From a virus (lineage: Duplodnaviria > Heunggongvirae > Uroviricota > Caudoviricetes): DNA of 21,516 bases. The DNA is taken from the IMG/VR virus record IMGVR_UViG_2718218434_000002, positions 1 to 21,516 of that record, one strand, 5' to 3'. Positions 935 through 20,078 of this stretch are shown here, piece after piece; positions within the stretch are counted from its first letter, which is position 1; each line of letters begins with the position of its first letter. Made by a program: the position numbers and the translations under genes. Below the pieces are notes generated by a model. That model did no database searches. It saw only the letters and a list, made by a program, of their open reading frames with translations, and was not told where the DNA came from.

Positions 935-2620
935 GTGAATATAAACGTCGCCGAATTGTTAAATGGGAATTACATTCTGTTATTATTTGTGGTCCTCGCG
1001 CTTGGGCTATGTCTCGGAAAGTTACGACTTGGTTCGATCCAACTGGGTAATTCCATTGGCGTTTTAGTCGTATCGCTGTTATTAGGCCAACAACATTTCA
1101 GCATTAACACCGATGCGCTTAATCTTGGCTTTATGCTGTTTATTTTCTGTGTTGGGGTTGAAGCCGGACCGAACTTTTTTTCCATTTTTTTTCGCGATGG
1201 GAAAAATTACCTAATGTTAGCACTGGTGATGGTTGGCAGTGCGCTGGTGATCGCCTTAGGGTTAGGTAAGCTGTTTGGCTGGGATATTGGCCTGACGGCC
1301 GGTATGTTAGCAGGCTCTATGACGTCGACACCGGTTCTGGTCGGTGCTGGCGATACACTGCGTCATTCCGGCATGGAAAGCAGGCAGCTCTCACTGGCAC
1401 TGGATAATCTGAGCCTCGGGTATGCCTTAACCTATTTAATCGGTCTGGTGAGTTTGATTGTTGGTGCGCGTTACTTGCCGAAATTGCAGCATCAGGACTT
1501 ACAGACCAGCGCCCAGCAAATCGCCCGCGAACGTGGCCTGGACACTGATGCCAACCGTAAGGTTTATTTACCGGTGATCCGCGCCTATCGCGTCGGCCCG
1601 GAACTGGTGGCCTGGACCGACGGCAAAAATCTGCGTGAACTGGGTATTTATCGACAAACCGGCTGCTACATTGAACGTATTCGACGTAACGGGATTCTGG
1701 CAAATCCAGACGGTGATGCCGTGCTACAAATGGGCGATGAAATAGCGTTGGTAGGCTATCCCGACGCCCATGCCCGACTCGATCCCAGCTTCCGTAACGG
1801 TAAAGAAGTTTTCGATCGTGACCTTCTCGACATGCGTATCGTCACTGAAGAAGTGGTCGTTAAAAACCATAACGCTGTAGGTAAACGTCTCGCACAACTG
1901 AAGTTGACCGATCACGGTTGCTTCCTTAACCGCGTCATTCGTAGCCAGATTGAGATGCCGATAGATGACAACGTCGTGCTTAACAAAGGTGACGTTTTAC
2001 AAGTCAGCGGCGATGCCCGCCGCGTAAAAACCATCGCCGATCGCATCGGCTTTATCTCGATTCACAGCCAGGTCACTGACCTGCTGGCATTCTGCGCCTT
2101 CTTTGTTATTGGGCTGATGATCGGGATGATCACCTTCCAGTTCAGCACATTCAGTTTCGGCATGGGGAACGCTGCCGGGTTGTTATTCGCCGGAATTATG
2201 CTGGGCTTTATGCGTGCTAACCACCCGACCTTCGGTTACATTCCGCAGGGTGCATTAAGCATGGTGAAAGAGTTCGGCTTGATGGTGTTTATGGCAGGCG
2301 TTGGTCTGAGCGCCGGTAGCGGTATTAATAACGGCCTGGGCGCGATTGGCGGTCAGATGTTGATTGCCGGATTGATTGTCAGTCTGGTGCCCGTGGTTAT
2401 CTGTTTCTTGTTCGGTGCTTATGTATTGCGAATGAACCGCGCGCTGTTGTTCGGCGCAATGATGGGCGCACGTACCTGCGCGCCGGCAATGGAGATCATC
2501 AGTGATACAGCTCGCAGTAACATCCCGGCGCTGGGCTATGCGGGCACCTATGCAATCGCCAACGTCCTGCTGACGCTGGCAGGGACAATCATCGTCATGG
2601 TATGGCCAGGATTAGGATAA
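935..2620 (+). CDS. ybjL: Putative AAE-family transporter YbjL (561 aa, GTG start)
   Basis: 561-aa polytopic membrane protein with a central soluble region (two TrkA-C-like segments) flanked by hydrophobic repeats. Sequence and length match E. coli YbjL from memory. GTG start at 935. Confidence 0.9.
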
Positions 2621-2732
2621 AACTGAAGTTGCCCTGAAAATGAAATTTTTTTGCACAACCGCAGAACTTTTCCGCAGGGCATCAGTCTTAATTAGTGCCA
2701 CTGCTTTTCTTTGATGTCCCCATTTTGTGGAG

Positions 2733-2779
2733 CCCATCAACCCCGCCATTTCGGTTCAAGGTTGATGGGTTTTTTGTTG
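2733..2779 (+). terminator. Hairpin plus T-tract, candidate ybjL terminator near the host/prophage boundary
   Basis: 10-bp perfect stem cccatcaacc (2733-2742) / ggttgatggg (2760-2769) followed directly by ttttttgttg. Confidence 0.5.
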
Positions 2780-2855
2780 CCTGAAATTTATGCCGTTTAA
2801 AATCATGACGTTAGAAGCACTGTTTTTTAACGATGGCGACAAAATGGCGGCAGCG

Positions 2856-3074
2856 TCAAAGAGAGAGCGCCACCTGTCCTGATTTCATTGGATGCGGCTG
2901 AACCGGATTTGACTCTTTTGGCGTTGCAATCGAACGAACAAAAGTTTCATGGGTTACAAAAGTATGGCTGCAGTTAATATTCTGGCACTGGTTGTAACGC
3001 TCTTTGGTCAATGAAGATACCTGAAAACTGCTGCGAGTATGGGCGGCACTTCCACACAGTGGGCAAATCATCAT
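2856..3074 (-). CDS. ogr: Late-gene transcriptional activator Ogr (zinc finger), 72 aa
   Basis: Translation MMICPLCGSAAHTRSSF...KERYNQCQNINCSHTF has the Ogr/Delta Cys-x2-Cys-x22-Cys-x4-Cys finger and resembles P2 Ogr. Start chosen at the internal ATG (3074) preceded by GGGGAGAA, giving the 72-aa length. The ORF track extends 11 codons further upstream. Confidence 0.85.
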   Translation of the reverse strand: MMICPLCGSAAHTRSSFQVSSLTKERYNQCQNINCSHTFVTHETFVRSIATPKESNPVQPHPMKSGQVALSL

Positions 3075-3164: not shown

Positions 3165-4265
3165 TCATTCCATTTCGAAATCATCAATCCTCACTTCAAG
3201 CTCCAGACTGGTCGTAAAACCGTTATCCGAGCTGACGGTATGTGTCAGAGTCGTAATGGTCCATTCCGCATCATCTATCGGCTGTTTAAAACCACTGACC
3301 TTCACAGGCATTTCCGTGTAGAGATCTGCCCGCCCTTCCGCCAGTTGTAGCGAGAATGACGCAACGCCGCGTTGCAGGCGTTCCCACTGCATTTTCGCTG
3401 CCCGTTCGGCGTTGCTCCGGTTGGCATAAGTGCGATTAAGTACCAGCACGTTTTCATCCGTACCCACCAGGTAATCGCCCTGCTTCGCTTCCGGCTCTTT
3501 CTTCTGCTTCTTAGTTCTGCGCTTACGCTTCACCGTGGTGCTTTCTTTCTTCGCAGGTTCGCGGGTATGCAACCAGCTGGCAATTACGCCCGTGTAAGCT
3601 CCGCGATCTGCCAGGGTAAATCGGTGACTGTCGCCGTCCTTGCGTGTGATAGTGATCACTGGCAGTGGTTTACCAGTGGCGCTTTTGCCCTGTCCCTGCC
3701 GAATGAATAACAGATTGCCATTTTTCACCGACGCAATAGCACCGTACTGGCGCGCCAGCCGCATCAGAAAACTGCCGTCACTCTCATTAGTCTGGTCTAT
3801 ATGTTCCACGGGCTTATCCGACAGGTCTTTACCCAGTGCCATCTTCAGCTTGTGACGCGCGGCTATTTCCTTCACCACTTCCCCAACTGTGGTCTTGTGC
3901 CACGATTTTTCACGGCGGGTATTCAGCGTTTCCCGAAAATCAGCACTTCGCGCCCGGATAGTCAGGCGGTCCGGTGCACCAGTGTGTTCAATTTCATCCA
4001 CCGTGAATGCCCCTTTCGGGAAAAGCGGCTGCCCCTTCCACCCCAGCGCCAGCATAATGACCGCACCACGGCGCGGCAGCACGATTTTTCCGTCGGCGTC
4101 GTCCAGCTCCAGATCAAGCTGGTCTGCTTCAAAGCCCCGATTGTCCGTCAGCGTAAGCCCCATCAGGCGGTTTTCCAGCACAGTGGTGATATCCTTGCCT
4201 TCAATGCTGATGCTGAATGCCGGAGTTTTGTTGCCTTTGTTAAGCAGTTCAGAGCTGAAATTCAC
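3165..4265 (-). CDS. D: Phage tail protein D (P2 gpD family), 366 aa
   Basis: Position directly upstream of ogr and downstream of U, size, and recalled similarity to P2 gpD. GTG start overlapping the U stop (GTGA). Confidence 0.85.
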   Translation of the reverse strand: MNFSSELLNKGNKTPAFSISIEGKDITTVLENRLMGLTLTDNRGFEADQLDLELDDADGKIVLPRRGAVIMLALGWKGQPLFPKGAFTVDEIEHTGAPDRLTIRARSADFRETLNTRREKSWHKTTVGEVVKEIAARHKLKMALGKDLSDKPVEHIDQTNESDGSFLMRLARQYGAIASVKNGNLLFIRQGQGKSATGKPLPVITITRKDGDSHRFTLADRGAYTGVIASWLHTREPAKKESTTVKRKRRTKKQKKEPEAKQGDYLVGTDENVLVLNRTYANRSNAERAAKMQWERLQRGVASFSLQLAEGRADLYTEMPVKVSGFKQPIDDAEWTITTLTHTVSSDNGFTTSLELEVRIDDFEME

Positions 4266-4747: not shown

Positions 4748-6558
4748 GCGTCGTATCCCCCCTGATCGCTGTAGTTACTCCTGGCTTTTGCCTTCAGCCT
4801 GCGTTCACGTTCATCAAGCTGGCGGGCCACCTCCCGCGCAATATCCTGCGCACTTTGTCCTGACTGCGTCTGGATGATGATCTGCGTCGGTGCCTCAATC
4901 CTGTAAACGGGCGGCACAGTGGCTGCGCGACTCACAATTGCTTCTCCACCTTTCGCGGGAAGTGCCAAAGGGTGCAACGGTGGAAGCTCTGCTGGCGCGG
5001 CAGCAACGCCCATCATTCCGGCAACAACGGCAGCCAGTGCAGCTGTATTTCTCCGGCTGGTCACATTTGCCGGGCCGTTGACAATTTCAGGCCCGTTTTC
5101 ACCGACGATGCCAAACTGCCCGCGCGGAATATAGCCGCCGCTGTCATACATCCCCGCAAAGCCATATCCCCATGACGGCAAACCACCCGATGGCATCATC
5201 ACTTTACCGTCTGCATTCACCGTCGCAGGTTGCTGACGCGTCACGCTTTCCGGTAGTTTTGCCTTTGCGGCCTCTTTACTGACAATGCCGAGTTTTTCCA
5301 GCAACCAGGAAACGCCGGATTTCAGGGAGTCCAGCGGATGCATGACCATATTCAGCCCTTCCGCCAGTGCCTCCCCGAATCGTCGCCCCATTGCCGCTGC
5401 GCTCTGCAGTTCGGCAGAGGTCGACTTAACAGGCGTCAGCAGATCAGTAAACCAGCCCCACAGCGCCTGCACTTTGTCGCCAATCCACTGAAACACAGGC
5501 TTAAGTGGTTCGAATGCAGCACTGATGGGACCTGCCGCCGCTTTGAATCCTTCCACCACTCCACCGAGAAATGCGGTGATGGGTTGCCAGTATTTCCAGA
5601 CAACCAGCGCCACGCCTGCCAGTGCAGTAACCACAAGACCTATCGGACTGAGCAGAGCACCTAACAGACCAGATATGGCATACAGGGCAACGCGCAGCAT
5701 CGCCAGTGGACCAGATGCCAGTACTCGCAGCACCGTACCTGCGGCGGTCAGTCCACCGCGCAGTACCGCCAGAGGATTCATAAACATCACAGCAACAGCA
5801 CGTAAACCGGATAATCCAGACCGCAATAGTGCAACCGGCGCACCTGCTACAGTTTTCAGGACATTCCCCGTCAGTGATGCCGTGCGACGCAAAGACGACA
5901 ACGGCGCAGTAAGTAAACCCGCTGCGTTGCCCGATGAAGCAAGCCCGCGTCGCAGCAGTGCCAGTGGTGCGCCAGCCAGCCAGGACAACGCGCTGCTGGT
6001 TCGTGTTACTGCTGCCGTAACGGAAGGTAACGTTTTGATACCCAGCACAGAGAATCCCAGACGGATCACTGCCAGCGGCCCCAGCACTGCAGCCAGCGCC
6101 ACCGCTAAGGTGCCGAGGCCTACGGTAACCGCAGCCACAATAGCGGCTACTTTCATCAGTGTGCCTGTCAGTTCCGGGTTAGCTTCCACCCAGCGGCGCA
6201 ACGCCCCCGTGATGCTTTTCACCGTGTACAGAATATTCATCAGCGGCTGGCGCAGCGTTTCGCCCAGGCTGCTGAAGGTGTTCTGCGCTCCGGTTTTGAC
6301 CAGCAACCACTGAGCAGAAAGTGAGTCTTTGTTGATGTCGGATTCTTTCTGCATGGAACCGAGCGCATCATTGCCCGCTGTCAGTTTTAGCTGGCGCTGT
6401 AGTTCCGGCAGGTTGTTTGCCAGTTTCGCCGCGTCATCGCCAAACTCTTTACCAAACAACATGGTCATGGCAGACAGACGCTTGTCCTGCGGCAGTGCGT
6501 TCACCTTGAGAAGCTGGAAGAAATCTTCCATTCCTCCATGTTCAACTACCAGCGCCAC
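4744..6558 (-). pseudogene. T: Tail tape-measure protein T, N-terminally truncated fragment (about 604 codons retained)
   Basis: Long Ala/Gly/Leu-rich repetitive protein typical of tape-measure proteins, directly upstream of U. The reading frame has no real start and runs head-on into the 5' end of the terminase fragment. P2 gpT is about 815 aa from memory. Confidence 0.8.
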
Positions 6559-8952: not shown

Positions 8953-11289
8953 TTACAAATATGTATTGCTATGTAGAGATGTGTTTATTCCATCTTCTAT
9001 CTCAATTTTTGACGAAGCATACTCATCATTCGCACTATCATCAATATCAAACTCATCTTGTAGATGAAGTGACTCATTTAACGGTTTATAAAACTCACCC
9101 ATCATCATTTTGTAATGGGCAGTATGCTCACTACACTCAAATATCTTCTGAAAAACAATTAAATATTTTTGCACAGACTCCGTATCTAAATTCATATAAA
9201 GATCATCACCTGCAAAATGAGAACCATCATTAATCCATGACACTAAAGATTTAAATATGATTTTTTCATCACCATAAAAATGACACTCAAGCTTCCTAAT
9301 ATCCATCCCTCCTAATATCTTAAAGTAATTCTCCAAAATCCTTCGCATTGTATTTTGTATAGTATTATTATTAATATCTGTTCTTCTCAATTCGCACCAG
9401 AGCAAATCATAAGACGTTTTTATTGGGTTTGATTCGCACTTTTCAAGATATGAGACCTTCCCTTTTTTCCTTACAATCCAAAAAGTCTCCTCTTTCATTG
9501 CTTGATTACCGGATCTTTTAGTATTAAAAGTCAACTCTTTATGAAAATAAATATTATGCGTAAGGAATATAATTTGCTTAATATTTCCTTCATCCTTACG
9601 AACATCCTCCATTAAATCTTTAATCAACGAACTTACAATAAACAGAATATCACTATCTAAACTTGAAATTGGATCATCAAATACTACAACACGATCATCT
9701 AAAACACCTGATGCATTATCACTCCCTCTAACAAGACTATAAAAATACAAAAAAGTGATAAATGTCTTTTCTCCCTCGCTAAGAGTTGTACGAGCATTAT
9801 CTCCACTATCTCTCACTATCATATAATGCTTTTTATCTTCGGAGGGTTTTAAGTAAAAATTTTTGAAGCCATAAGAATCCAGAATCTTGTTAATTTTTGT
9901 AATAGTTGGAAGAGTACTGGTTTTATTAGACTCAATTGCCTCAATAGCCGAAGCATTTAACATTAACTTCTTTTTGTCTTCCTCTAACCCAGATTTAAGT
10001 CCTTGTAACCTCCTACTAAATTTATCAGATTCGCTACGGTAAGAAGTTATTTCAGACTTTAACTCCACCTTTACGATATATGCCCATATCTGATTAGAAA
10101 GATTACTAACCTCTACCTTTCTATTACTGTGTATTTTGTTATTATTATCTATCAATAGATTTGAATCATTCAAAAAAGAAATAAAATCATCAACAACTTC
10201 ACTTAAGTCACTAAAATGAACTGATTCACTTAAAAAATTGCGTTTGTTTTTTGCCAATTCAAAATTCTTGTTTAATTCAGATAATACTATCTTAGCCTTA
10301 TCCTCAAATACTTCATAATTTATGAATGGAGATTTAATCGCCCTTATATCATCTATCGCCTGCAAGATATTATTAAGTTGATGTTCATATTGTAAAACCA
10401 ATGCATCGATTTCTCTTTTTTTTAACTCGTATGTTTTATCAAAATATGATGATAGATTATCAAATATATTATCATTTACATCCTGTTGGCAGAATGGGCA
10501 CTTGGGATTAGATTTACTGAAATATGTTAAACCTTCCTTAACCCAATCACTGTTATTGAGCATTGTAATTAAGTCTGAAACACTAACGTCTTTTTTCCCT
10601 AGAATACGCTCACTCCAAATCTCCCTACTCAAAATATCATCTATCCCATTGAAGGATGGAATTGTAATTGATACATGTGATGTCAATTCAGTAGAAAAAA
10701 CAATTTTTGCTTTCTCAATTAGCTCTGCTATTGAGCAAACTTCTGATGTGTTATTTTCATACTCAGCCAACACTCTAGCTTTAAATTTTTCACTACTATT
10801 CCTTAATCCCTCAAAAGCCTTTGAGAACACATTATCATGTTTTATTTTTTGCTTCCAACATGAATCTTTAAAAGATTTTTCATGGTCTTCGATTTGTTTA
10901 ACAACGCCTAATATATTATCACCACCATCTATTAGCTTTTCCTTTGCTATAATAGATTCTATTAGCTTATTTTTTTCTTCTTCAAGAGATATTAGTTTCT
11001 CTTCATCCTCCTTAAGATCGCTACCAAGGGTAAATACACCTTTAATTTTATCTTGACTAAAATTTCTTTCAACAAAATCTTTATTATATACGTAGCTTAT
11101 TAAAGATATATTATTTTTCCATTTAATCGGACATGTTGGATATTGTTCAGGGTCATTAATAATTTTACTTATAGTTGTTTTACCTGCACCATTAGCTCCA
11201 TATAAATAGTTAAATTTAGAAAGCCCATGTAAAAGCTGAGTAGGGCCATTATATGAGCCTACTTTGTCAATAACTACCTCTTCAATCAT
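8953..11289 (-). CDS. Stand-alone ABC-type ATPase with coiled-coil CxxC hook and C-terminal nuclease-like domain (AAA_13 / RloC-PrrC-like candidate), 778 aa
   Basis: Motifs read from the translation: Walker A GANGAGKTT (aa 31-39, nt 11173-11199), CPFC near the middle of a long charged heptad-like insert (nt about 10486-10500), ABC signature LSEGEK, Walker B VVVFDDP, H-loop LTHN, then a roughly 200-aa tail containing RRILE and a later GSH. The gene is visibly AT-rich compared with flanking phage genes. Confidence 0.6.
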   Translation of the reverse strand: MIEEVVIDKVGSYNGPTQLLHGLSKFNYLYGANGAGKTTISKIINDPEQYPTCPIKWKNNISLISYVYNKDFVERNFSQDKIKGVFTLGSDLKEDEEKLISLEEEKNKLIESIIAKEKLIDGGDNILGVVKQIEDHEKSFKDSCWKQKIKHDNVFSKAFEGLRNSSEKFKARVLAEYENNTSEVCSIAELIEKAKIVFSTELTSHVSITIPSFNGIDDILSREIWSERILGKKDVSVSDLITMLNNSDWVKEGLTYFSKSNPKCPFCQQDVNDNIFDNLSSYFDKTYELKKREIDALVLQYEHQLNNILQAIDDIRAIKSPFINYEVFEDKAKIVLSELNKNFELAKNKRNFLSESVHFSDLSEVVDDFISFLNDSNLLIDNNNKIHSNRKVEVSNLSNQIWAYIVKVELKSEITSYRSESDKFSRRLQGLKSGLEEDKKKLMLNASAIEAIESNKTSTLPTITKINKILDSYGFKNFYLKPSEDKKHYMIVRDSGDNARTTLSEGEKTFITFLYFYSLVRGSDNASGVLDDRVVVFDDPISSLDSDILFIVSSLIKDLMEDVRKDEGNIKQIIFLTHNIYFHKELTFNTKRSGNQAMKEETFWIVRKKGKVSYLEKCESNPIKTSYDLLWCELRRTDINNNTIQNTMRRILENYFKILGGMDIRKLECHFYGDEKIIFKSLVSWINDGSHFAGDDLYMNLDTESVQKYLIVFQKIFECSEHTAHYKMMMGEFYKPLNESLHLQDEFDIDDSANDEYASSKIEIEDGINTSLHSNTYL

Positions 11290-11712: not shown

Positions 11713-12294
11713 ATGAAAGTCAACATAAAACAGATTGTTGGAAATTGGGAATTAGGTCTTGCGATGGATAAACACAGCATCCGCAGCATTCCCATTGGTT
11801 ACGATGAGTGGGGACATATGCGGTTTGAGACGGAGCGTACTGAGGTAGGCGAATCTCTTTTCCAGCTTAAATACCGTGACGATTGGTCACAAGTTAAGCC
11901 TTTAGCCCAATGCCTAGCAGAGCATGCCTTTCCTCATTTCAGCAATGTCGGGTTTATCGTTCCAATGGCTGCATCTAATCAGCGTGCACGCCAGCCAGTG
12001 ACCGAAATAGCTCAGGAACTAGCCAAACTAGTTGGCAAACCATGCTTCGATGACCTCTTGTTGAAAGCCCCCGGCGGGGCATCGCTAAAGAACCTGAATA
12101 CAAAAGAAGAGAAAATCACGGCGCTGGGTAATTCGTTCTCTGTTAATGACAGTATTGAGAATAATGGCAACTGGAATGTCCTTATCATTGACGACCTCTA
12201 CCATACAGGCGCATCTATGGAGGCTGCTTGTGCTGTGCTAAACGATTATACTAAGGTTAGAAGCATTTATGTTGCAGCTTTGACTTGGAGATAG
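11713..12294 (+). CDS. Type I phosphoribosyltransferase-domain protein (PRTase), 193 aa
   Basis: PRPP-binding signature VLIIDDLYHTGASM (nt about 12178-12219) near the C-terminus. ATG preceded by GGTGAG. Its stop lies 2 nt before the next gene's ATG. Confidence 0.8.
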   Translation: MKVNIKQIVGNWELGLAMDKHSIRSIPIGYDEWGHMRFETERTEVGESLFQLKYRDDWSQVKPLAQCLAEHAFPHFSNVGFIVPMAASNQRARQPVTEIAQELAKLVGKPCFDDLLLKAPGGASLKNLNTKEEKITALGNSFSVNDSIENNGNWNVLIIDDLYHTGASMEAACAVLNDYTKVRSIYVAALTWR

Positions 12295-12296
12295 TG

Positions 12297-12854
12297 ATGA
12301 CTACGGTATTTGTTGCTGGTTCAATAACCATCAAAAACCTTGACACACTCATCGTGGATCGTCTGAAAAAAATTGTTAACTCGCGTTTTCGTATTGTAGT
12401 TGGTGATGCCAATGGTGTTGATTCATCTGTTCAACGCGTATTGCTAGAACTTGGATGTGAAAAAGCCACAGTATTCAGTAGCTCAGAAAAACCGCGCAAT
12501 AATCTTGGCTCATGGCCTGTACATGTAGTAAGTACTAGCCATGCAGCCGGCACTCGCGCGTTTTTCACTGCGAAAGATCTCAAAATGGCAGAAGAAGCCG
12601 ATTATGGATTAATGGTTTGGGATACGAAGAGCACGGGTACTCTGAGTAACGTGATTGAGCTTCTTAAACGTAAAAAATACTCTGTCGTTTTTGTTAATAA
12701 ATACAAAAAGTTCTTTATTATCAAATCTCCAGAGCACCTTGACGCTTTGATTAACTGCATGTCACCAGCCTCTTTGGAAAAAGCTGATGAAAAGATCAGA
12801 TTGCGCGAAAAAATCAACCAACTAAAAAACGAGCAAATCCAGATGTTTATGTGA
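12297..12854 (+). CDS. DprA/Smf-like (SLOG superfamily) Rossmann-fold protein, about 185 aa
   Basis: RIVVGDANGVDSSVQR resembles the DprA VSGLARGIDxxAH motif, and a later KSTGTLSNVIELLKRKK resembles the DprA SGS(L) region. ATG at 12297 with GGAG 7 nt upstream, so it is co-transcribed with the PRTase. The ORF track starts 4 codons earlier at TTG. Confidence 0.65.
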   Translation: MTTVFVAGSITIKNLDTLIVDRLKKIVNSRFRIVVGDANGVDSSVQRVLLELGCEKATVFSSSEKPRNNLGSWPVHVVSTSHAAGTRAFFTAKDLKMAEEADYGLMVWDTKSTGTLSNVIELLKRKKYSVVFVNKYKKFFIIKSPEHLDALINCMSPASLEKADEKIRLREKINQLKNEQIQMFM

Positions 12855-12943
12855 AATTCTTTGATGATAACACTAACGCCTCGCCCTGCTCGTTGTTCAA
12901 CCTTGCTGGCTTCAGAATCAAGTACTGATGCCAGCAACGTTTC

Positions 12944-13177
12944 TTAATGCAGCCAGCTGTCGTCTTCCCACACCTTCTGCATAATTTTCATCACTTGTTT
13001 TCTTTCTTCGTCCAGTTGCAGTCCGGTCAGTTCCACACCGTTAGAGCTACCTTTTCGGATACGAATTACCGTTTTGGGATACAGGGGGCGCAGATTGCGG
13101 TAAAGCTCGGATTCAAGGGCGTCCAGGGTAGACTGGCTAATCTTCTGCTCTTTATCGATCATTATTTCAATGCGCAT
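12944..13177 (-). CDS. DinI-family protein (77 aa), equivalent to the C-terminal part of 186 Tum
   Basis: MRIEIMIDKEQKISQSTLDALESEL...KVWEDDSWLH aligns by eye with E. coli DinI (MRIEVTIAK...). Internal ATG at 13177 with GAGGTGA upstream chosen as the start. The ORF track's longer frame overlaps the upstream gene. Confidence 0.8.
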   Translation of the reverse strand: MRIEIMIDKEQKISQSTLDALESELYRNLRPLYPKTVIRIRKGSSNGVELTGLQLDEERKQVMKIMQKVWEDDSWLH

Positions 13178-13187
13178 AAAAGTCACC

Positions 13188-13376
13188 TCAACTGATGACA
13201 TCCATTGAGCGGTTGTATTCGTGAGTTCTGATTTTTGCCATGAGTTCATCAGTCAATTCAGAAACCCACTGCAGGGCCAGCCCCTTCTCTTCATCACTAC
13301 ACTCACTAGCCGCTACAAGCTTAAGAAAAAAATCAATGCGCTGGAGCTTCAAAGACTCCAAAAAATAGTCCTGCAT
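13188..13376 (-). CDS. Small acidic protein (62 aa), candidate Tum-like antirepressor N-terminal module
   Basis: ATG with a strong AGGAGG RBS, immediately downstream of a LexA box and 10 nt upstream of the dinI-like gene. Function inferred from the arrangement only. Confidence 0.5.
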   Translation of the reverse strand: MQDYFLESLKLQRIDFFLKLVAASECSDEEKGLALQWVSELTDELMAKIRTHEYNRSMDVIS

Positions 13377-13418
13377 CTTTCCTCCTATGACACCAAAGCA
13401 ATACTGTATACATAACCA

Positions 13419-13434
13419 CTGTTTATATTTACAG
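13419..13434. promoter_or_regulatory. LexA (SOS) box CTGTTTATATTTACAG
   Basis: Perfect CTGT-N8-ACAG palindrome with an AT-rich spacer, about 45 bp upstream of the 62-aa ORF start on the minus strand. An overlapping partial site tactgtatac lies just to the left. Confidence 0.7.
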
Positions 13435-13528
13435 TATATAATAATCTTACTGATGTAAAACGTTTTTTTACGCTCATCAGCCTGATATGCCTGGTATTAT
13501 TAAGAGCACGAATTGTTAACCCGCGTAA

Positions 13529-15901
13529 TTAATACAGGTTTCGCCACTTATCATCTTCCTGCAAACGCTGGTTCCGATAGAAGATACGCAGGCCTGCTCC
13601 TGACGGAATACTGCCTCCGCGAAGCAGTAAATCGACCTCTTTCTCGCTGCCATCAAATCCCCTGGACTTCAGTTCATACACGAGCTGCAGTCGCTGATGG
13701 TCTGTAATTCGCTGTTTGTAGTCTTTACGCCGTTTCGGTTTCACCAGGCGTAACCTTGCTGCCAGTTCCCGGCGCTCTTTTTTGCTCATACTGTGCAGGT
13801 AATCGTGCAACTCCTTGTCATCCATGCGGGTGATATCCGTTCTGGTATCTCCATCAGCTGATTTGTCTTTCCCTTGTTGGTACAAATTTTCAGCAAGGGG
13901 ACAGTTATTGCCACGAGTCCAAGGGGCGCAAGCGCCCTGGCCGGCTGCCGCCTCCTGAACATCAACGGCCTTACGAACCATTTTCCACTTCACGGCATGA
14001 GTGCAGATCTTGCCCTCTGCAATAGGTGACCAGATGCCATAAATACGAATGCCGTGATCGCCATAGGCGGTCGGCTCTTCGTTGATTTCATAAGCGGTTC
14101 TGATGAGGTGATATTTGCGGGGAACCAGTACGCCGCCCTGCTTCATGATGTAGGTGGCAAAACAACCAGCATCAGCAGCAGCCAGGATGGCATCAAGGCG
14201 CGGGTTATCCAGTACCGGCGCACCTGCTTTTTTGTCCCCCTGTTGCCTTGCCGCCTGACCAGCCAGCAATCGCAGTTCACGGTAAGCCTGACGCCCCGGA
14301 ATGCCAAAGAAGCGGAATTGCTGAACACGATGCAGAGACGCCCAGGCATTAACGTATTCAGCATTATCACGCAGGGATTTCCCCGTTTCCTTGCTGATCT
14401 CGCCAGCCAGACCACGCCCGTCAATGTTCTTACTGATGTATTTCGCGATGTAGCTTGTTGGCGTACCTTTGCGCGGGTTAATCAACTCAGACTTAAAGCG
14501 CGGCCCAGTGTTATTGCCCAGTTCCTCGCGGTCTTCACGGATGGCAAACTTACGCAGTAATGCAGTGATGGCGCGGCGGTCTTTTTTGCGCATAAAACAC
14601 AACAGGTGCCAGTGAACTGTACCGTCATGATGCGGCTCAGCCACCCGCACGCCATACCACCGCAATCCGGCTTTGTGCATCGCCTTACGAAATGCAGCAA
14701 ACATGCCGACCAGATAATCACTGCTTTGTCTTACCGTCGCATTTGTCCAAGTTGGGTTGGGCCTGCCATTATTTAGCGTGGAATGGAAACGTGACGGACA
14801 GGTGATGGTGTAGAAAACGGCGCAGTCACCGCGCATTTCCGCGATAAGCTCCAGGCCTTTAACACAGGCCATCATCTCATTGCGGCGATGCGCAGGGTTG
14901 CTGCTGCTGGCGTTTACCACGTCTTCCATATCCAGCGTGTCGCCGTCTTCGTTCACCAGTTCATGAGAACGAAAAAACTCCAGCGACTTACGGCGCTGCT
15001 CACGTTTATGCATCACGGCTTCATAGCTGACATAGGGAGATGCTTTTTTGCTGACCAGGCAGACAGCACGCAACTGCTCTTCCCGCCATTCGCAACGCAT
15101 CTTCCATAATTTCCGGTACCACCAGTCAGCGCACAACATACGCGCCAGCGAACCCGGAATGAGTTCATAGGGCACGGGTTTACGGCGGTTTCTTTTCCGG
15201 CGGAGTTGCTCAAACGCAGGCGGGATGACATCCAGACGCAGGGTTTCCGCTGCCACCTTTTCCCATGTCTTGCGGATTTCTTCTGGCTTAACGTCATCGG
15301 TGACATACAAATCGCCACAAGCTGCATCAAGGCACATGCTCATATGCGCAGCTACCAGGGTGGACAGGCGTTTCACCTGATCCTGACTCATTTCAGGCAG
15401 GATCAGCAGGCCGTCCAGCCCTTCATGGCTTGCCATAAAGCGAAAAGAAGTGGATAGCTGACAGTCGCGTACATGCTCCAGCCGTTCCAGACATGGCTTA
15501 ATCGTCTCACGCAAATAGCGGGAATAAGCCTTTGGCCTGCCCAGGCTGCTGAAGTATTCAATACGTTGCATCAGCGGCTTGCTGATATGGGAAGGCTGGG
15601 CATTGACGTCCGCCAGAATGACCATATCTGGATTAAAACGCTGCTGCTCATGCGCCAGCTTTGCCCGACTAATGAGCTTATCCTGCTCCATTTCGCGCTG
15701 GACAGGATCACGGGATTCATTAAAGAAATAACGCTCCCAGACCTGATCACTCAGTGCCTCGCGGCGCAGCTGTTCCTGCTCGTTATCGGCAGCGTACAGA
15801 GCGATCAGGTTTGAAAGCGCAGAAACTGAAGATTGCTCTTCTGTCTCTACGTAAGGATTGATTGCTTTTTTCTCAGCATTCCAGGAATAGCTGTAGTTCA
15901 T
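13529..15901 (-). CDS. A: Replication initiation protein A (rolling-circle HUH endonuclease, P2 gpA family), about 790 aa
   Basis: HUH motif in [15 protein letters not shown] and the downstream [12 protein letters not shown] segment match P2 gpA from memory. Start set at the ATG that overlaps the stop of the upstream gene (TAATG). The ORF track extends 17 codons further. Confidence 0.9.
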
Positions 15902-16731
15902 TACGCAATCTCCAGTTCGAGCTGTGAAGGCTGCAAACCATTCGACAGCCAATCAGAAACTGAAGGTGGGCGAACAGCTTCAATTGCACCTTTTAAAATT
16001 GCGCAACGGTTTTTCAGAATGACAGCTTTCAGCTCCTTTTCCGTCAGATTGCGCGAATACTCAGCCTCCTGAATAGCCCGCGTCAGCTCAGGATATTTGC
16101 TATTAAATTTGGGGACATTGCAGGCAAGATTTGTACTGTCGGCAGTCGCCAGTGGGTAATTTCCCAACACACGACCGTCAAGCATGCGCAAACCATGAAC
16201 AGCTGTTTTGAAATTGTGTCGGCAATAAATTGCTTCAAAAGCGTCCTGCATACGACGATGCCAGTGCGCAGTTCTGATAGCCGCATATTCACCAGACGAT
16301 CCAAAGCAGACACGAGGCCATTCACGACATAGCTCGATAAGCCGATCGATTGACTCGTGCAGATGCCAGACGGGAGTTGCCTTCCCGTAGAACATTTTCG
16401 GAACTTCGTTTATCAGGGCATCATTGTCACGTTCACCTCCGTCCACAACATCAGGAATGACAAAAAAAGCGACCTTAGGATGGTGGTAATAGTTCAGGAG
16501 CCATTTATAAAAATCACTCCAGTTAATTTTTAGCCCACGCACCCATGCAGAAAATGCGCCGTTATCAATGCCGACGACCTGAGCGTGCTGAATGGACGCC
16601 GCAATCTGATCTGGTCGTACATAGGAGACGAAAGCGCCAGCTCCGCTCACCGCAATACGATGAACGTCGCCAGCACTTCCCCAGACAGGCGTCCCATGGA
16701 AATGATGAATTCCGTGGTGCATTTCTTTCAC
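15901..16731 (-). CDS. Hypothetical protein (276 aa) coupled to the Dam methylase; possible TIM-barrel TGT/DpdA-like DNA-modification enzyme
   Basis: Translationally coupled to dam upstream (GTGA overlap) and to A downstream. Motif order GIDNGAFS ... FFVIPDVV ... CFGSSGEY ... ATADSTN loosely parallels the tRNA-guanine transglycosylase motifs TDSGGFQ ... IFDEC ... LMGVG ... MFDCV. The fold assignment is tentative. Confidence 0.7.
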
Positions 16732-19383: not shown

Positions 19384-19508
19384 GATGCAACATTCCTCGT
19401 TTAATGATGATTAATCAGGACGAATACGGATCGTTTGTATTTTGTGAACACCATAAACATACGATCGCACAGTGAAATCGTCAAGATAAAAGTTCACTTG
19501 GAGTGACC
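19384..19508. promoter_or_regulatory. Immunity switch region between apl and cI (promoters and operators)
   Basis: 125-bp AT-rich intergenic region between divergently oriented apl and cI. Individual operators were not resolved. Confidence 0.5.
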
Positions 19509-20078
19509 ATGAATTTGGAGAAAGGCGGACGAGGCGCTATAGAGCGCATGGTAGAAGCTTATGGATTCAAAACTCGACAGGCGTTGTGCGATCATTTAGG
19601 AATCTCTAAAAGTACACTCGCCACACGCTACATGCGTGACTCATTCCCAGCAGAATGGGTAATCCAGTGCGCCCTTGAAACGGGCACCTCGCTTAATTGG
19701 CTCACAACCGGACATGGTTCAAAGCAAACTTCAGGTAATACAAATACTATGGAAGTTGCTAAATATGTATTATCTGATGGTGCCTTGCGTGAAGACGGTT
19801 TTTATATTTTTGATAAGGGATTTCTACCCTCTACGTTTAAAAAACCTTTTGTCATCACAGATAACAATTCTGAATTTATTTGTGATAAAGAATTTGATGA
19901 TATACGTGACGGTAAATGGGTAATAAGTATTGATGGCGAAATAACAATCCGCGACATTACTCGTTTACCCGGTGGAAGAATCTTCGTTGAAGGTGGAAAC
20001 AGAGCCTTCGAGTGCAAGATAGAAGATGTTGAAATAATTGGGAAAATTATAAGTTTAACAATTAAGTACGTTAGGTAA
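19509..20078 (+). CDS. cI: CI immunity repressor (186 CI-like), about 189 aa
   Basis: N-terminal HTH (QALCDHLGISKSTLATRYMRD). Size and position upstream of int match the 186 cI-int lysogenic operon. ATG at 19509 with GGAG 6 nt upstream. Confidence 0.8.
   Translation: MNLEKGGRGAIERMVEAYGFKTRQALCDHLGISKSTLATRYMRDSFPAEWVIQCALETGTSLNWLTTGHGSKQTSGNTNTMEVAKYVLSDGALREDGFYIFDKGFLPSTFKKPFVITDNNSEFICDKEFDDIRDGKWVISIDGEITIRDITRLPGGRIFVEGGNRAFECKIEDVEIIGKIISLTIKYVR

Follow-up and report, generated by a model that had tools for sequence, protein, structure and literature searches.

The window, that is, the whole stretch of 21,516 nucleotides analyzed here, contains replication gene A of a prophage and, directly downstream of it on the same strand, a tum module of two small genes with its promoter and LexA box at 13404-13459. 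The whole feature is very probably the SOS operon of a 186/Fels-2-like (P2 family) prophage, present in the usual two-gene form tumA-tumB. An earlier note on this DNA had described a LexA box at 13419-13434, an acidic 62-aa minus-strand ORF with an AGGAGG ribosome-binding site, and a DinI-like gene 10 nt further downstream in another frame. All three were found as placed. The features are, in the direction of transcription and followed by the CI repressor gene:

13529-15952, minus strand: replication gene A (807 aa), ending at 13529, after which the tum operon follows
13454..13459, minus strand: -35 hexamer TTTACA of the SOS promoter (p95 equivalent), read from the sequence
13431..13438, minus strand: -10 region TATACTGT, in which the hexamer is TATACT or TACTGT and which LexA box 1 overlaps, assigned by analogy with 186 p95, whose annotated -10 element is located within its LexA site
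13419..13434, minus strand: LexA box 1, CTGTAAATATAAACAG, of the form CTGT-N8-ACAG, the sole copy in the window
13404..13419, minus strand: putative LexA box 2, GTGGTTATGTATACAG, predicted, with one base in common with box 1
13381..13386, minus strand: AGGAGG, ribosome-binding site of the tumA-like gene, 4 nt before the ATG at 13376
13188..13376, minus strand: tumA-like gene (ORF62), 62 aa, acidic, the presumed antirepressor of the prophage CI
13178-13187: gap of 10 nt between tumA and tumB
13186..13189, minus strand: GAGG, the tumB ribosome-binding site, which shares bases with the stop codon of tumA (TGA, 13188-13190), read from the sequence
12944..13177, minus strand: tumB, DinI-like, 77 aa, in the +1 frame relative to ORF62
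12899..12941, minus strand: RNA hairpin directly 3' of the tumB stop codon, from RNAalifold conservation
19503..20078, plus strand: gene of the 186-type CI repressor (191 aa), on which the tumA-like protein presumably acts

The window contains a 186/Fels-2-like Escherichia coli prophage adjoining a host permease gene and the RybB sRNA. It carries int, the gene of the 186-type CI, a 171-aa ORF in the cII position, replication genes, the tail genes D and U and part of T, part of the terminase gene P, and the portal gene Q. BLAST against Fels-2 revealed a junction at 6507/6508, where tail gene T (Fels-2 position 3498) is joined to terminase gene P (20146), and about 16.6 kb of Fels-2 comprising tail, lysis, and head genes are missing. 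The prophage is defective, as the earlier note had assumed. With this loss of head, tail, and lysis genes, induction would lead at most to the activity of early genes, excision, and replication, and the prophage would not form particles alone. The CI ORF at 19503-20078 matched the Pfam models Phage_CI_repr (E = 2.8e-33) and Phage_CI_C (E = 2e-28), and a self-cleavage domain was not among its Pfam matches. A 186-type CI of this kind, showing no self-cleavage domain, needs an antirepressor-type factor.

The LexA box reads CTGTTTATATTTACAG on the plus strand. Boxes of this type have the consensus TACTGTATATATATACAGTA, with which box 1 and its flanks agree at 17 of 20 positions. By itself, box 1 says little, as its occurrence is not statistically unusual: chance would give 0.31 copies of CTGT-N8-ACAG in the window, where one was observed, and at least one copy turned up in 25 of 100 shuffled windows. 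We accept the box as real because of its position and its conservation in six phages of the Fels-2 group. In these phages, the -35 hexamer, the CTGT and ACAG halves of box 1, a second box-like element, and the AGGAGG are invariant, and the intergenic DNA around them has diverged. Beside box 1, all six keep GTGGTTAT.T.TACAG. The hexamer TTTACA lies 17 nt upstream of TACTGT, which resembles the annotated p95 promoter of 186 (TTCACA, 18 nt, TACTGT). A generic sigma-70 promoter scan did not call the SOS promoter, because its -10 element is TACTGT or TATACT.

The second element deserves attention. The 36-nt operator ACTGTAAATATAAACAGTGGTTATGTATACAGTATT aligned without gaps and with four mismatches to the paired SOS boxes in front of cna, the colicin N gene, and the same gapless alignment with four mismatches was obtained with the promoter region of a cloacin gene on small Col-type plasmids. 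Box 1 aligns with the distal SOS box of both promoters. Boxes 1 and 2 (13404-13419) are two 16-nt boxes that overlap by one base, which is the colicin-type geometry; the left half of box 2, GTGG, deviates from CTGT. Considering the alignment to the colicin N and cloacin promoters and the conservation in six phages, the Fels-2-type tum operator is probably a colicin-type double LexA box rather than a single box. 186 and PSP3 show one box-like site each, that of 186 being annotated as a putative LexA site. Overlapping double SOS-box operators of the colicin type are bound by two LexA dimers (PMC2994835), and by analogy LexA might occupy both boxes of the tum operator.

The close spacing of the two genes, with the GAGG of tumB overlapping the stop codon of tumA, suggests that they are probably translationally coupled. 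TumB matched the Pfam DinI family PF06183 with E = 6.6e-23 and 81.3 bits (cut-off, 24.2), whereas its score against NF007893, the NCBIfam equivalog of the host DinI, was 42.7 bits and below the cut-off of 111. It is therefore a phage DinI-like paralogue and not the chromosomal DinI. Its identity amounts to 78% with PSP3 TumB and 41% with residues 71-145 of 186 Tum, the DinI part of that protein. TumB presumably modulates RecA. Deletion of the dinI homologues in Gifsy prophages had no significant effect on induction (PMC3121763).

Downstream of tumB, RNAalifold applied to five phages predicted a hairpin at 12899..12941 with 18 pairs, 6 of which carry compensatory changes. This hairpin is a possible 3' end of the operon or a partial terminator, comparable to 186 t95a; its role as a terminator is uncertain because it is not followed by a U tract. 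A different minus-strand "terminator" at 13182-13199, the only one reported by the scan, was discarded: it covers both the stop codon of tumA and the ribosome-binding site of tumB and is not conserved in the SopEPhi group. Rfam at gathering thresholds detected no RNA family in the operon.

The protein encoded by ORF62 has a pI of 4.6 and was modeled by AlphaFold2 as a two-helix hairpin (helices 2-23 and 28-61; pLDDT, 88.8). A Foldseek search of the PDB with this model returned generic helical hairpins alone, at E > 1, and was uninformative. No match was obtained in a PDB sequence search with the ORF62 family profile, and no Pfam or NCBIfam model matched ORF62. BLASTP gave no alignment between ORF62 and 186 Tum, between ORF62 and PSP3 TumA, or between PSP3 TumA and 186 Tum. 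Because these proteins are short and fast-evolving, a BLASTP null is uninformative here and profiles are needed.

Profile comparisons did reveal a relationship. ORF62 belongs to phrog_698 (E = 3.6e-38) and matched phrog_8554 (2.4e-8) and phrog_1993 (2.2e-3) as well. The N-terminal 69 aa of 186 Tum matched the same three families in the reverse order of strength, namely, phrog_1993 (1.9e-23), phrog_8554 (3.2e-12), and phrog_698 (6.4e-6), the last of these in register, positions 7-44 against 7-44. Local hhalign of the two families gave an ungapped alignment of columns 5-43 against 5-43 (P = 0.0014), and in a MAFFT alignment, also without internal gaps, E7, L20, A34, and E40 were invariant and R13 and C26 nearly so. 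A joint profile of both families retrieved 158 proteins at E <= 0.001 from 1.84 billion representatives, many of them intermediates such as MQDFLFESLALQRIELVARLVADSECGDADKELAINWIAELT. An iterative HMM search seeded with ORF62-type sequences only, with sequences bearing the 186-type motif kept out of the profile, reached full-length 186 Tum in its second round (E = 3.5e-4) and scored it at 2e-7 in the third (Z = 1.8e9). PSP3 TumA, which is a member of phrog_1993 (2.7e-32) and the one stand-alone protein with reported antirepressor activity, was never reached by this search. It is thus well supported at the profile level that ORF62 is a remote homologue of the N-terminal region of 186 Tum, with which it shares about 20% identity. 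A weak link connects ORF62 to PSP3 TumA, consisting solely of the phrog_1993 cross-match. The earlier note had made its interpretation depend on similarity of the 62-aa product to the Tum N-terminus. This similarity is present, and, as it is seen by profiles only, a refutation based on BLASTP would misfire. In 186, the ORF62-like region is the part of Tum that is missing from the DinI-only product.

The two-ORF arrangement had been interpreted by the earlier note either as a natural two-protein form of tum or as a frameshifted tum. The former was corroborated by the profile homology of ORF62 and by the identity of TumB to the Tum C-terminus; the latter is contradicted by dN/dS, by the separate ribosome-binding site, and by variation of the reading frames. 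In a sample comprising the window, Fels-2, RE-2010, SopEPhi, SEN8, Klebsiella phi4.1, and Cartapus, dN/dS was 0.06-0.12 for ORF62 in its own frame, at dS of about 0.8-1.15, and 0.02-0.09 for tumB. Both genes are under strong purifying selection. Among the best 120 of 493 related clusters, 62 aa is by far the commonest length, and these 120 clusters stem from Escherichia, Salmonella, Raoultella, Enterobacter, Citrobacter, Kosakonia, Pectobacterium, and Lonsdalea, to which phage records add Klebsiella. The best 150 of the 158 family representatives retrieved by the joint profile are mostly of about 50-75 aa, and 2 of them contain a DinI domain (P0256, 146 aa, and P0244, 157 aa), implying that a split tum is the usual condition and a fused one, as in 186, the exception. 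Close relatives of the 186 Tum N-terminus, too, include many stand-alone proteins (63-67 aa), and NCBI gives several of these the name "Tum protein." The relation between the two frames differs from phage to phage: tumB is in +1 after a 10-nt gap in one subgroup, to which the window and Fels-2 belong, in +2 after an 11-nt gap and with 14 open codons in SopEPhi, SEN8, and Klebsiella phi4.1, and in frame, separated by a single stop codon and a 3-nt gap, in PSP3. Such variation argues both against a recent frameshift and against a conserved programmed frameshift. Altogether, these comparisons support tum in the window as a natural two-gene split.

That the two ORFs might nevertheless be a single tum recently broken by a frameshift or stop, and now decaying as a pseudogene, was suggested by their sizes, which sum to nearly that of Tum as the earlier note had remarked (62 + 77 = 139 aa versus 146 aa), and by the DinI frame, which extends upstream for 25 open codons and reaches into the end of ORF62. 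Truly frameshifted or truncated variants do occur among 186-type tum genes (for instance, P0146 and P0259), and the prophage harboring the genes is itself degraded. A decaying gene would be hard to reconcile with the dN/dS of ORF62 in its own frame at dS of about 1, with its own invariant ribosome-binding site, with the prevalence of the 62-aa length among the best 120 of 493 relatives from many genera, with the presence of the module in 1124 E. coli genomes, or with the rarity of the DinI fusion in the best 150 representatives. Furthermore, the same arrangement exists in intact plaque-forming phages, such as Fels-2, RE-2010, SopEPhi, and Cartapus, and gaps and frames vary between relatives. 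We therefore rejected the frameshifted pseudogene on the strength of dN/dS and of the stand-alone form as the norm, and regard it as the least credible of the explanations considered. Hardly more probable is programmed +1 frameshifting near the end of ORF62, by which TumA, TumB, and a TumA-TumB fusion would all be produced. It would exploit the open tumB frame just mentioned, whose overlap with ORF62 measures 65 nt in the window as well as in Fels-2, RE-2010, and Cartapus, and it has a precedent in 186, where one gene gives rise to full-length Tum and a DinI-only product. This fusion product was rejected as well, because the frame relation is not conserved (+1, +2, or in frame with a stop); the peptide encoded by the overlap also differs between subgroups.

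Taking tumA and tumB as two natural genes, we propose the following mechanism. In the undamaged cell, LexA would sit at the promoter just downstream of gene A, on an operator that extends into the -10 region and probably consists, like those of colicin genes, of two overlapping boxes. DNA damage would activate RecA, LexA would cleave itself, and tumA-tumB would be transcribed. The 62-aa TumA-like hairpin protein would then bind the 186-type CI and keep it off its operators, so that the early lytic promoter would be derepressed, and TumB, probably coupled to TumA, would act on RecA filaments and tune the SOS signal. Binding of CI by TumA in the element described here is proposed by analogy with 186, the induction of which involves sequestration of CI by the LexA-controlled Tum (PMC7708051, where this is traced to Shearwin et al. 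1998).

Conservation of TumA and CI adds a further aspect to this model. Within the Fels-2 group, TumA is 82-100% identical, whereas whole CI is 41-58% identical. The variation in CI is uneven: across the group, N-terminal domains are 62-79% and C-terminal domains 25-59% identical, and the window CI shares 62-70% of its N-terminal and 25-31% of its C-terminal domain with the CIs of the group. On a wider scale, three TumA sequence types pair with three CI classes, those of 186, of PSP3 and RCIP0057 (CI of 280-286 aa), and of the Fels-2 group. An antirepressor that is far more conserved than the repressor does not show the pattern of a tightly coevolving specific pair. This suggests that TumA may target the N-terminal domain of CI, possibly including that of heteroimmune repressors. 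One might go further and speculate that the Fels-2-type TumA is a broad-specificity antirepressor recognizing the relatively conserved N-terminal DNA-binding domain of CI, an idea that we offer tentatively and would sooner doubt than endorse. If it were true, a defective prophage such as this one may, upon DNA damage, induce heteroimmune 186/Fels-2-like prophages in trans in the same cell, and the double LexA operator would set a high and late threshold for such trans-induction. In that case, the "prophage crosstalk" of the Gifsy type would reach a very common class of E. coli prophages, those of the P2 family.

The same conservation can be read in another way. ORF62 might not be an antirepressor at all, and the operon might be SOS-modulating cargo, in which a DinI-like protein and its small partner act on RecA, LexA, or another host target, to the advantage of host or phage and with no control over the CI switch. 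A conserved host target would fit the observation that ORF62 varies much less than CI among heteroimmune phages, and PHROG, Pfam, and NCBIfam assign no function to ORF62. On the other hand, the N-terminal domain of CI is sufficiently conserved (62-79%) that it could explain a conserved TumA without any host target. The homology of ORF62, detected with profiles, is to the very part of Tum that the DinI-only product lacks, position and regulation are as in 186 and PSP3, and the upstream gene of PSP3 has been reported as the antirepressor (PMC3121763). Moreover, the CI in the window, being of the 186 type and showing no self-cleavage domain, calls for such a factor. We consequently find the cargo explanation unlikely, if clearly less so than a broken tum or a programmed frameshift, and retain the antirepressor as the presumed function of ORF62.

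The tumA/tumB module is already described for the 186-like phages Fels-2 and PSP3, and it is very common and ordinary. Of 5426 complete E. coli genomes, 1124 (about 21%) contain the 641-bp module, and the tum module was found in 67 phage records in addition. Nevertheless, PGAP names the genes of this region in E. coli "DinI-like family protein," "hypothetical protein," and "replication endonuclease," and the ORF62 gene is labeled "hypothetical protein" in RefSeq and "unknown function" in PHROG. What this work adds to the known picture is small, namely, an apparent double LexA operator and a TumA that is much more conserved than its presumed target CI. Two points were missed by the earlier note: the prior publication and annotation of the arrangement in Fels-2 and PSP3, and the apparent doubling of the LexA box in the operator. 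The value of the analysis lies chiefly in annotation, as it concerns a 62-aa gene of about one-fifth of the complete E. coli genomes and of many Salmonella, Klebsiella, and Enterobacter prophages. If the gene were named TumA-like, it would flag such prophages, or what remains of them, as inducible by the SOS response via an antirepressor. Beyond annotation, an antirepressor far more conserved than its repressor hints at cross-induction between heteroimmune prophages.

Among the known systems, Fels-2 is closest. Lemire et al. 2011 describe tum as split in two in Fels-2 (PMC3121763, citing Bunny et al. 2002) and in PSP3, where the upstream gene is the antirepressor (PMC3121763); in that article, the split is based on Bunny et al. 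2002 and a personal communication of G. E. Christie (PMC3121763). The Fels-2 product STM2728 is identical to ORF62 in 61 of 62 aa, and STM2726.1 is identical to TumB in all 77. The gene order after gene A, the 10-nt gap, the +1 frame, the promoter, and the double-box operator are shared as well. The two prophages differ in CI, the window protein being 63% identical to Fels-2 CI in its N-terminal domain and 25% in its C-terminal domain, and in the approximately 16.6 kb of structural and lysis genes that are retained in Fels-2. They also differ in the cargo downstream of tumB and in the conserved 3' hairpin of the window, which is absent in Fels-2.

In PSP3 (GenBank AY135486), gene A is likewise followed by a LexA box-like sequence and then by separate tumA and tumB genes. 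Its TumA (60 aa) is annotated as "similar to 5' end 186 tum; UV induction of prophage" and its TumB (77 aa, 78% identical to TumB of the window) as "similar to dinI and 3' end of 186 tum." In contrast to the window, the PSP3 genes share one frame, with a stop codon and a 3-nt gap between them, and follow one box-like site; TumA shows no pairwise similarity to ORF62, only the weak phrog_1993 match (E = 2.2e-3), and the CI of 286 aa has a duplicated helix-turn-helix region. In 186, the LexA-repressed p95 also lies directly after gene A, and both parts of the module have their counterparts in Tum, the N-terminal part being similar to ORF62 at the profile level and the C-terminal DinI part 41% identical to TumB. 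Here, however, both parts reside in one polypeptide of 146 aa, and internal starts additionally give the DinI-only product. Further differences are the low identity of the Tum N-terminal part to ORF62 (about 20%, and nothing by BLASTP), the single annotated LexA site, and orf97 after tum, which is not present in the window.

More distant parallels are found outside the P2 family. The dinI-gfoA and dinI-gftA operons of the Gifsy prophages (Lemire et al. 2011, PMC3121763) are LexA-controlled and, like the operon in the window, combine a DinI homologue with a small antirepressor directed against an uncleaved repressor. Their order is reversed, with dinI first, and they belong to lambdoid phages with another repressor family. 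The colicin and cloacin promoters share with the window the overlapping SOS boxes that align to its 36-nt operator. They differ in the -35 region and in the spacing to the start codon, and these boxes control a bacteriocin there and a prophage antirepressor, as we presume, in the window.

Among the matches listed, database versions of ORF62, the 62-aa tumA-like gene of the prophage, are often 87 to 96 aa long in the protein clusters, because gene callers moved the start upstream, across the region of the promoter and the LexA box. In the sequences examined, ORF62 starts at a conserved MQDY after the AGGAGG site. The features within and directly after the operon that ORF62 forms with tumB, the 77-aa DinI-like gene, are as follows.

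13385-13477, minus strand: upstream extension region of ORF62, with promoter and LexA box region
13182-13199, minus strand: small hairpin (GTCATC...GGTGAC) covering the stop codon of tumA together with the ribosome-binding site of tumB
12899-12941, minus strand: conserved 18-bp hairpin directly 3' of the tumB stop codon

The small hairpin at the tumA/tumB junction was scored as terminator-like by the scan, and it could couple translation of tumB to that of tumA. Its sequence is not conserved in the SopEPhi/SEN8/Kp phi4.1 subgroup. The hairpin 3' of tumB is supported by six compensatory pairs among the five phages compared and is directly followed by the conserved sequence GGTTGAACAA; no U tract was found at this hairpin. 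It is absent from Fels-2, the sequence of which diverges immediately past the tumB stop codon. This hairpin may represent the 3' end of the operon or mark the boundary of a cargo hotspot.

In the 186-type tum family, the linker that leads from the N-terminal domain to the DinI domain appears to carry a frameshift or a truncation in four proteins (P0146, P0147, P0177, and P0259). The same family also includes clean stand-alone forms of 63 to 67 aa and fused forms. Because broken-looking variants coexist with both, gene fission and fusion seem to have a hotspot in this linker.

Outside the operon, we located host, junction, cargo, and repressor features.

935-2620: host permease gene
2700-2778, plus strand: RybB sRNA (Rfam RF00110, 105 bits)
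6507/6508: deletion junction between tail gene T and terminase gene P (Fels-2 positions 3498 and 20146, respectively)
8953-11289, minus strand: AAA_13 ATPase of 778 aa, a cargo gene in the interval from portal gene Q to tumB
11713-12294, plus strand: ComF/ShosT/PsyrT-like phosphoribosyltransferase (PADLOC ShosT, 1.3e-8; PsyrT, 1.5e-7)
12285-12854, plus strand: 189-aa ORF, without a match in the family search
19503-20078, plus strand: CI repressor, mosaic

RybB is flanked by the permease gene on one side and by the prophage's ogr/D end on the other, so that the prophage adjoins rybB. Comparison with Fels-2 revealed that about 16.6 kb, comprising tail, lysis, and head genes, is absent at the deletion junction, leaving truncated ORFs of 604 aa (T) and 445 aa (P).

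In PADLOC, the ATPase hits PDC-S06, a candidate defence family, at E=8e-266; its matches to LmuB and PrrC are weaker. The phosphoribosyltransferase gene and the 189-aa ORF overlap by 10 nt, are convergent with tumB, and may form, within the P2 cargo hotspot, a toxin-antitoxin or defence pair resembling Shosta/PsyrTA.

Judged by its sequence, the CI repressor is a mosaic. Its N-terminal domain is 62 to 70% identical to those of Fels-2-group CIs, whereas its C-terminal domain shares only 25 to 31% identity with theirs. In the Fels-2-group phage RE-2010 (L005), the GenBank "repressor" CDS is a truncated call of 74 aa; the full ORF (2438-3070, minus strand) encodes 210 aa and is identical to Cartapus CI. 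Unlike such 210-aa CIs, the prophage repressor lacks a linker insertion of about 19 aa, and its C-terminal domain is as distant from the Fels-2-group CIs as that of 186 CI.
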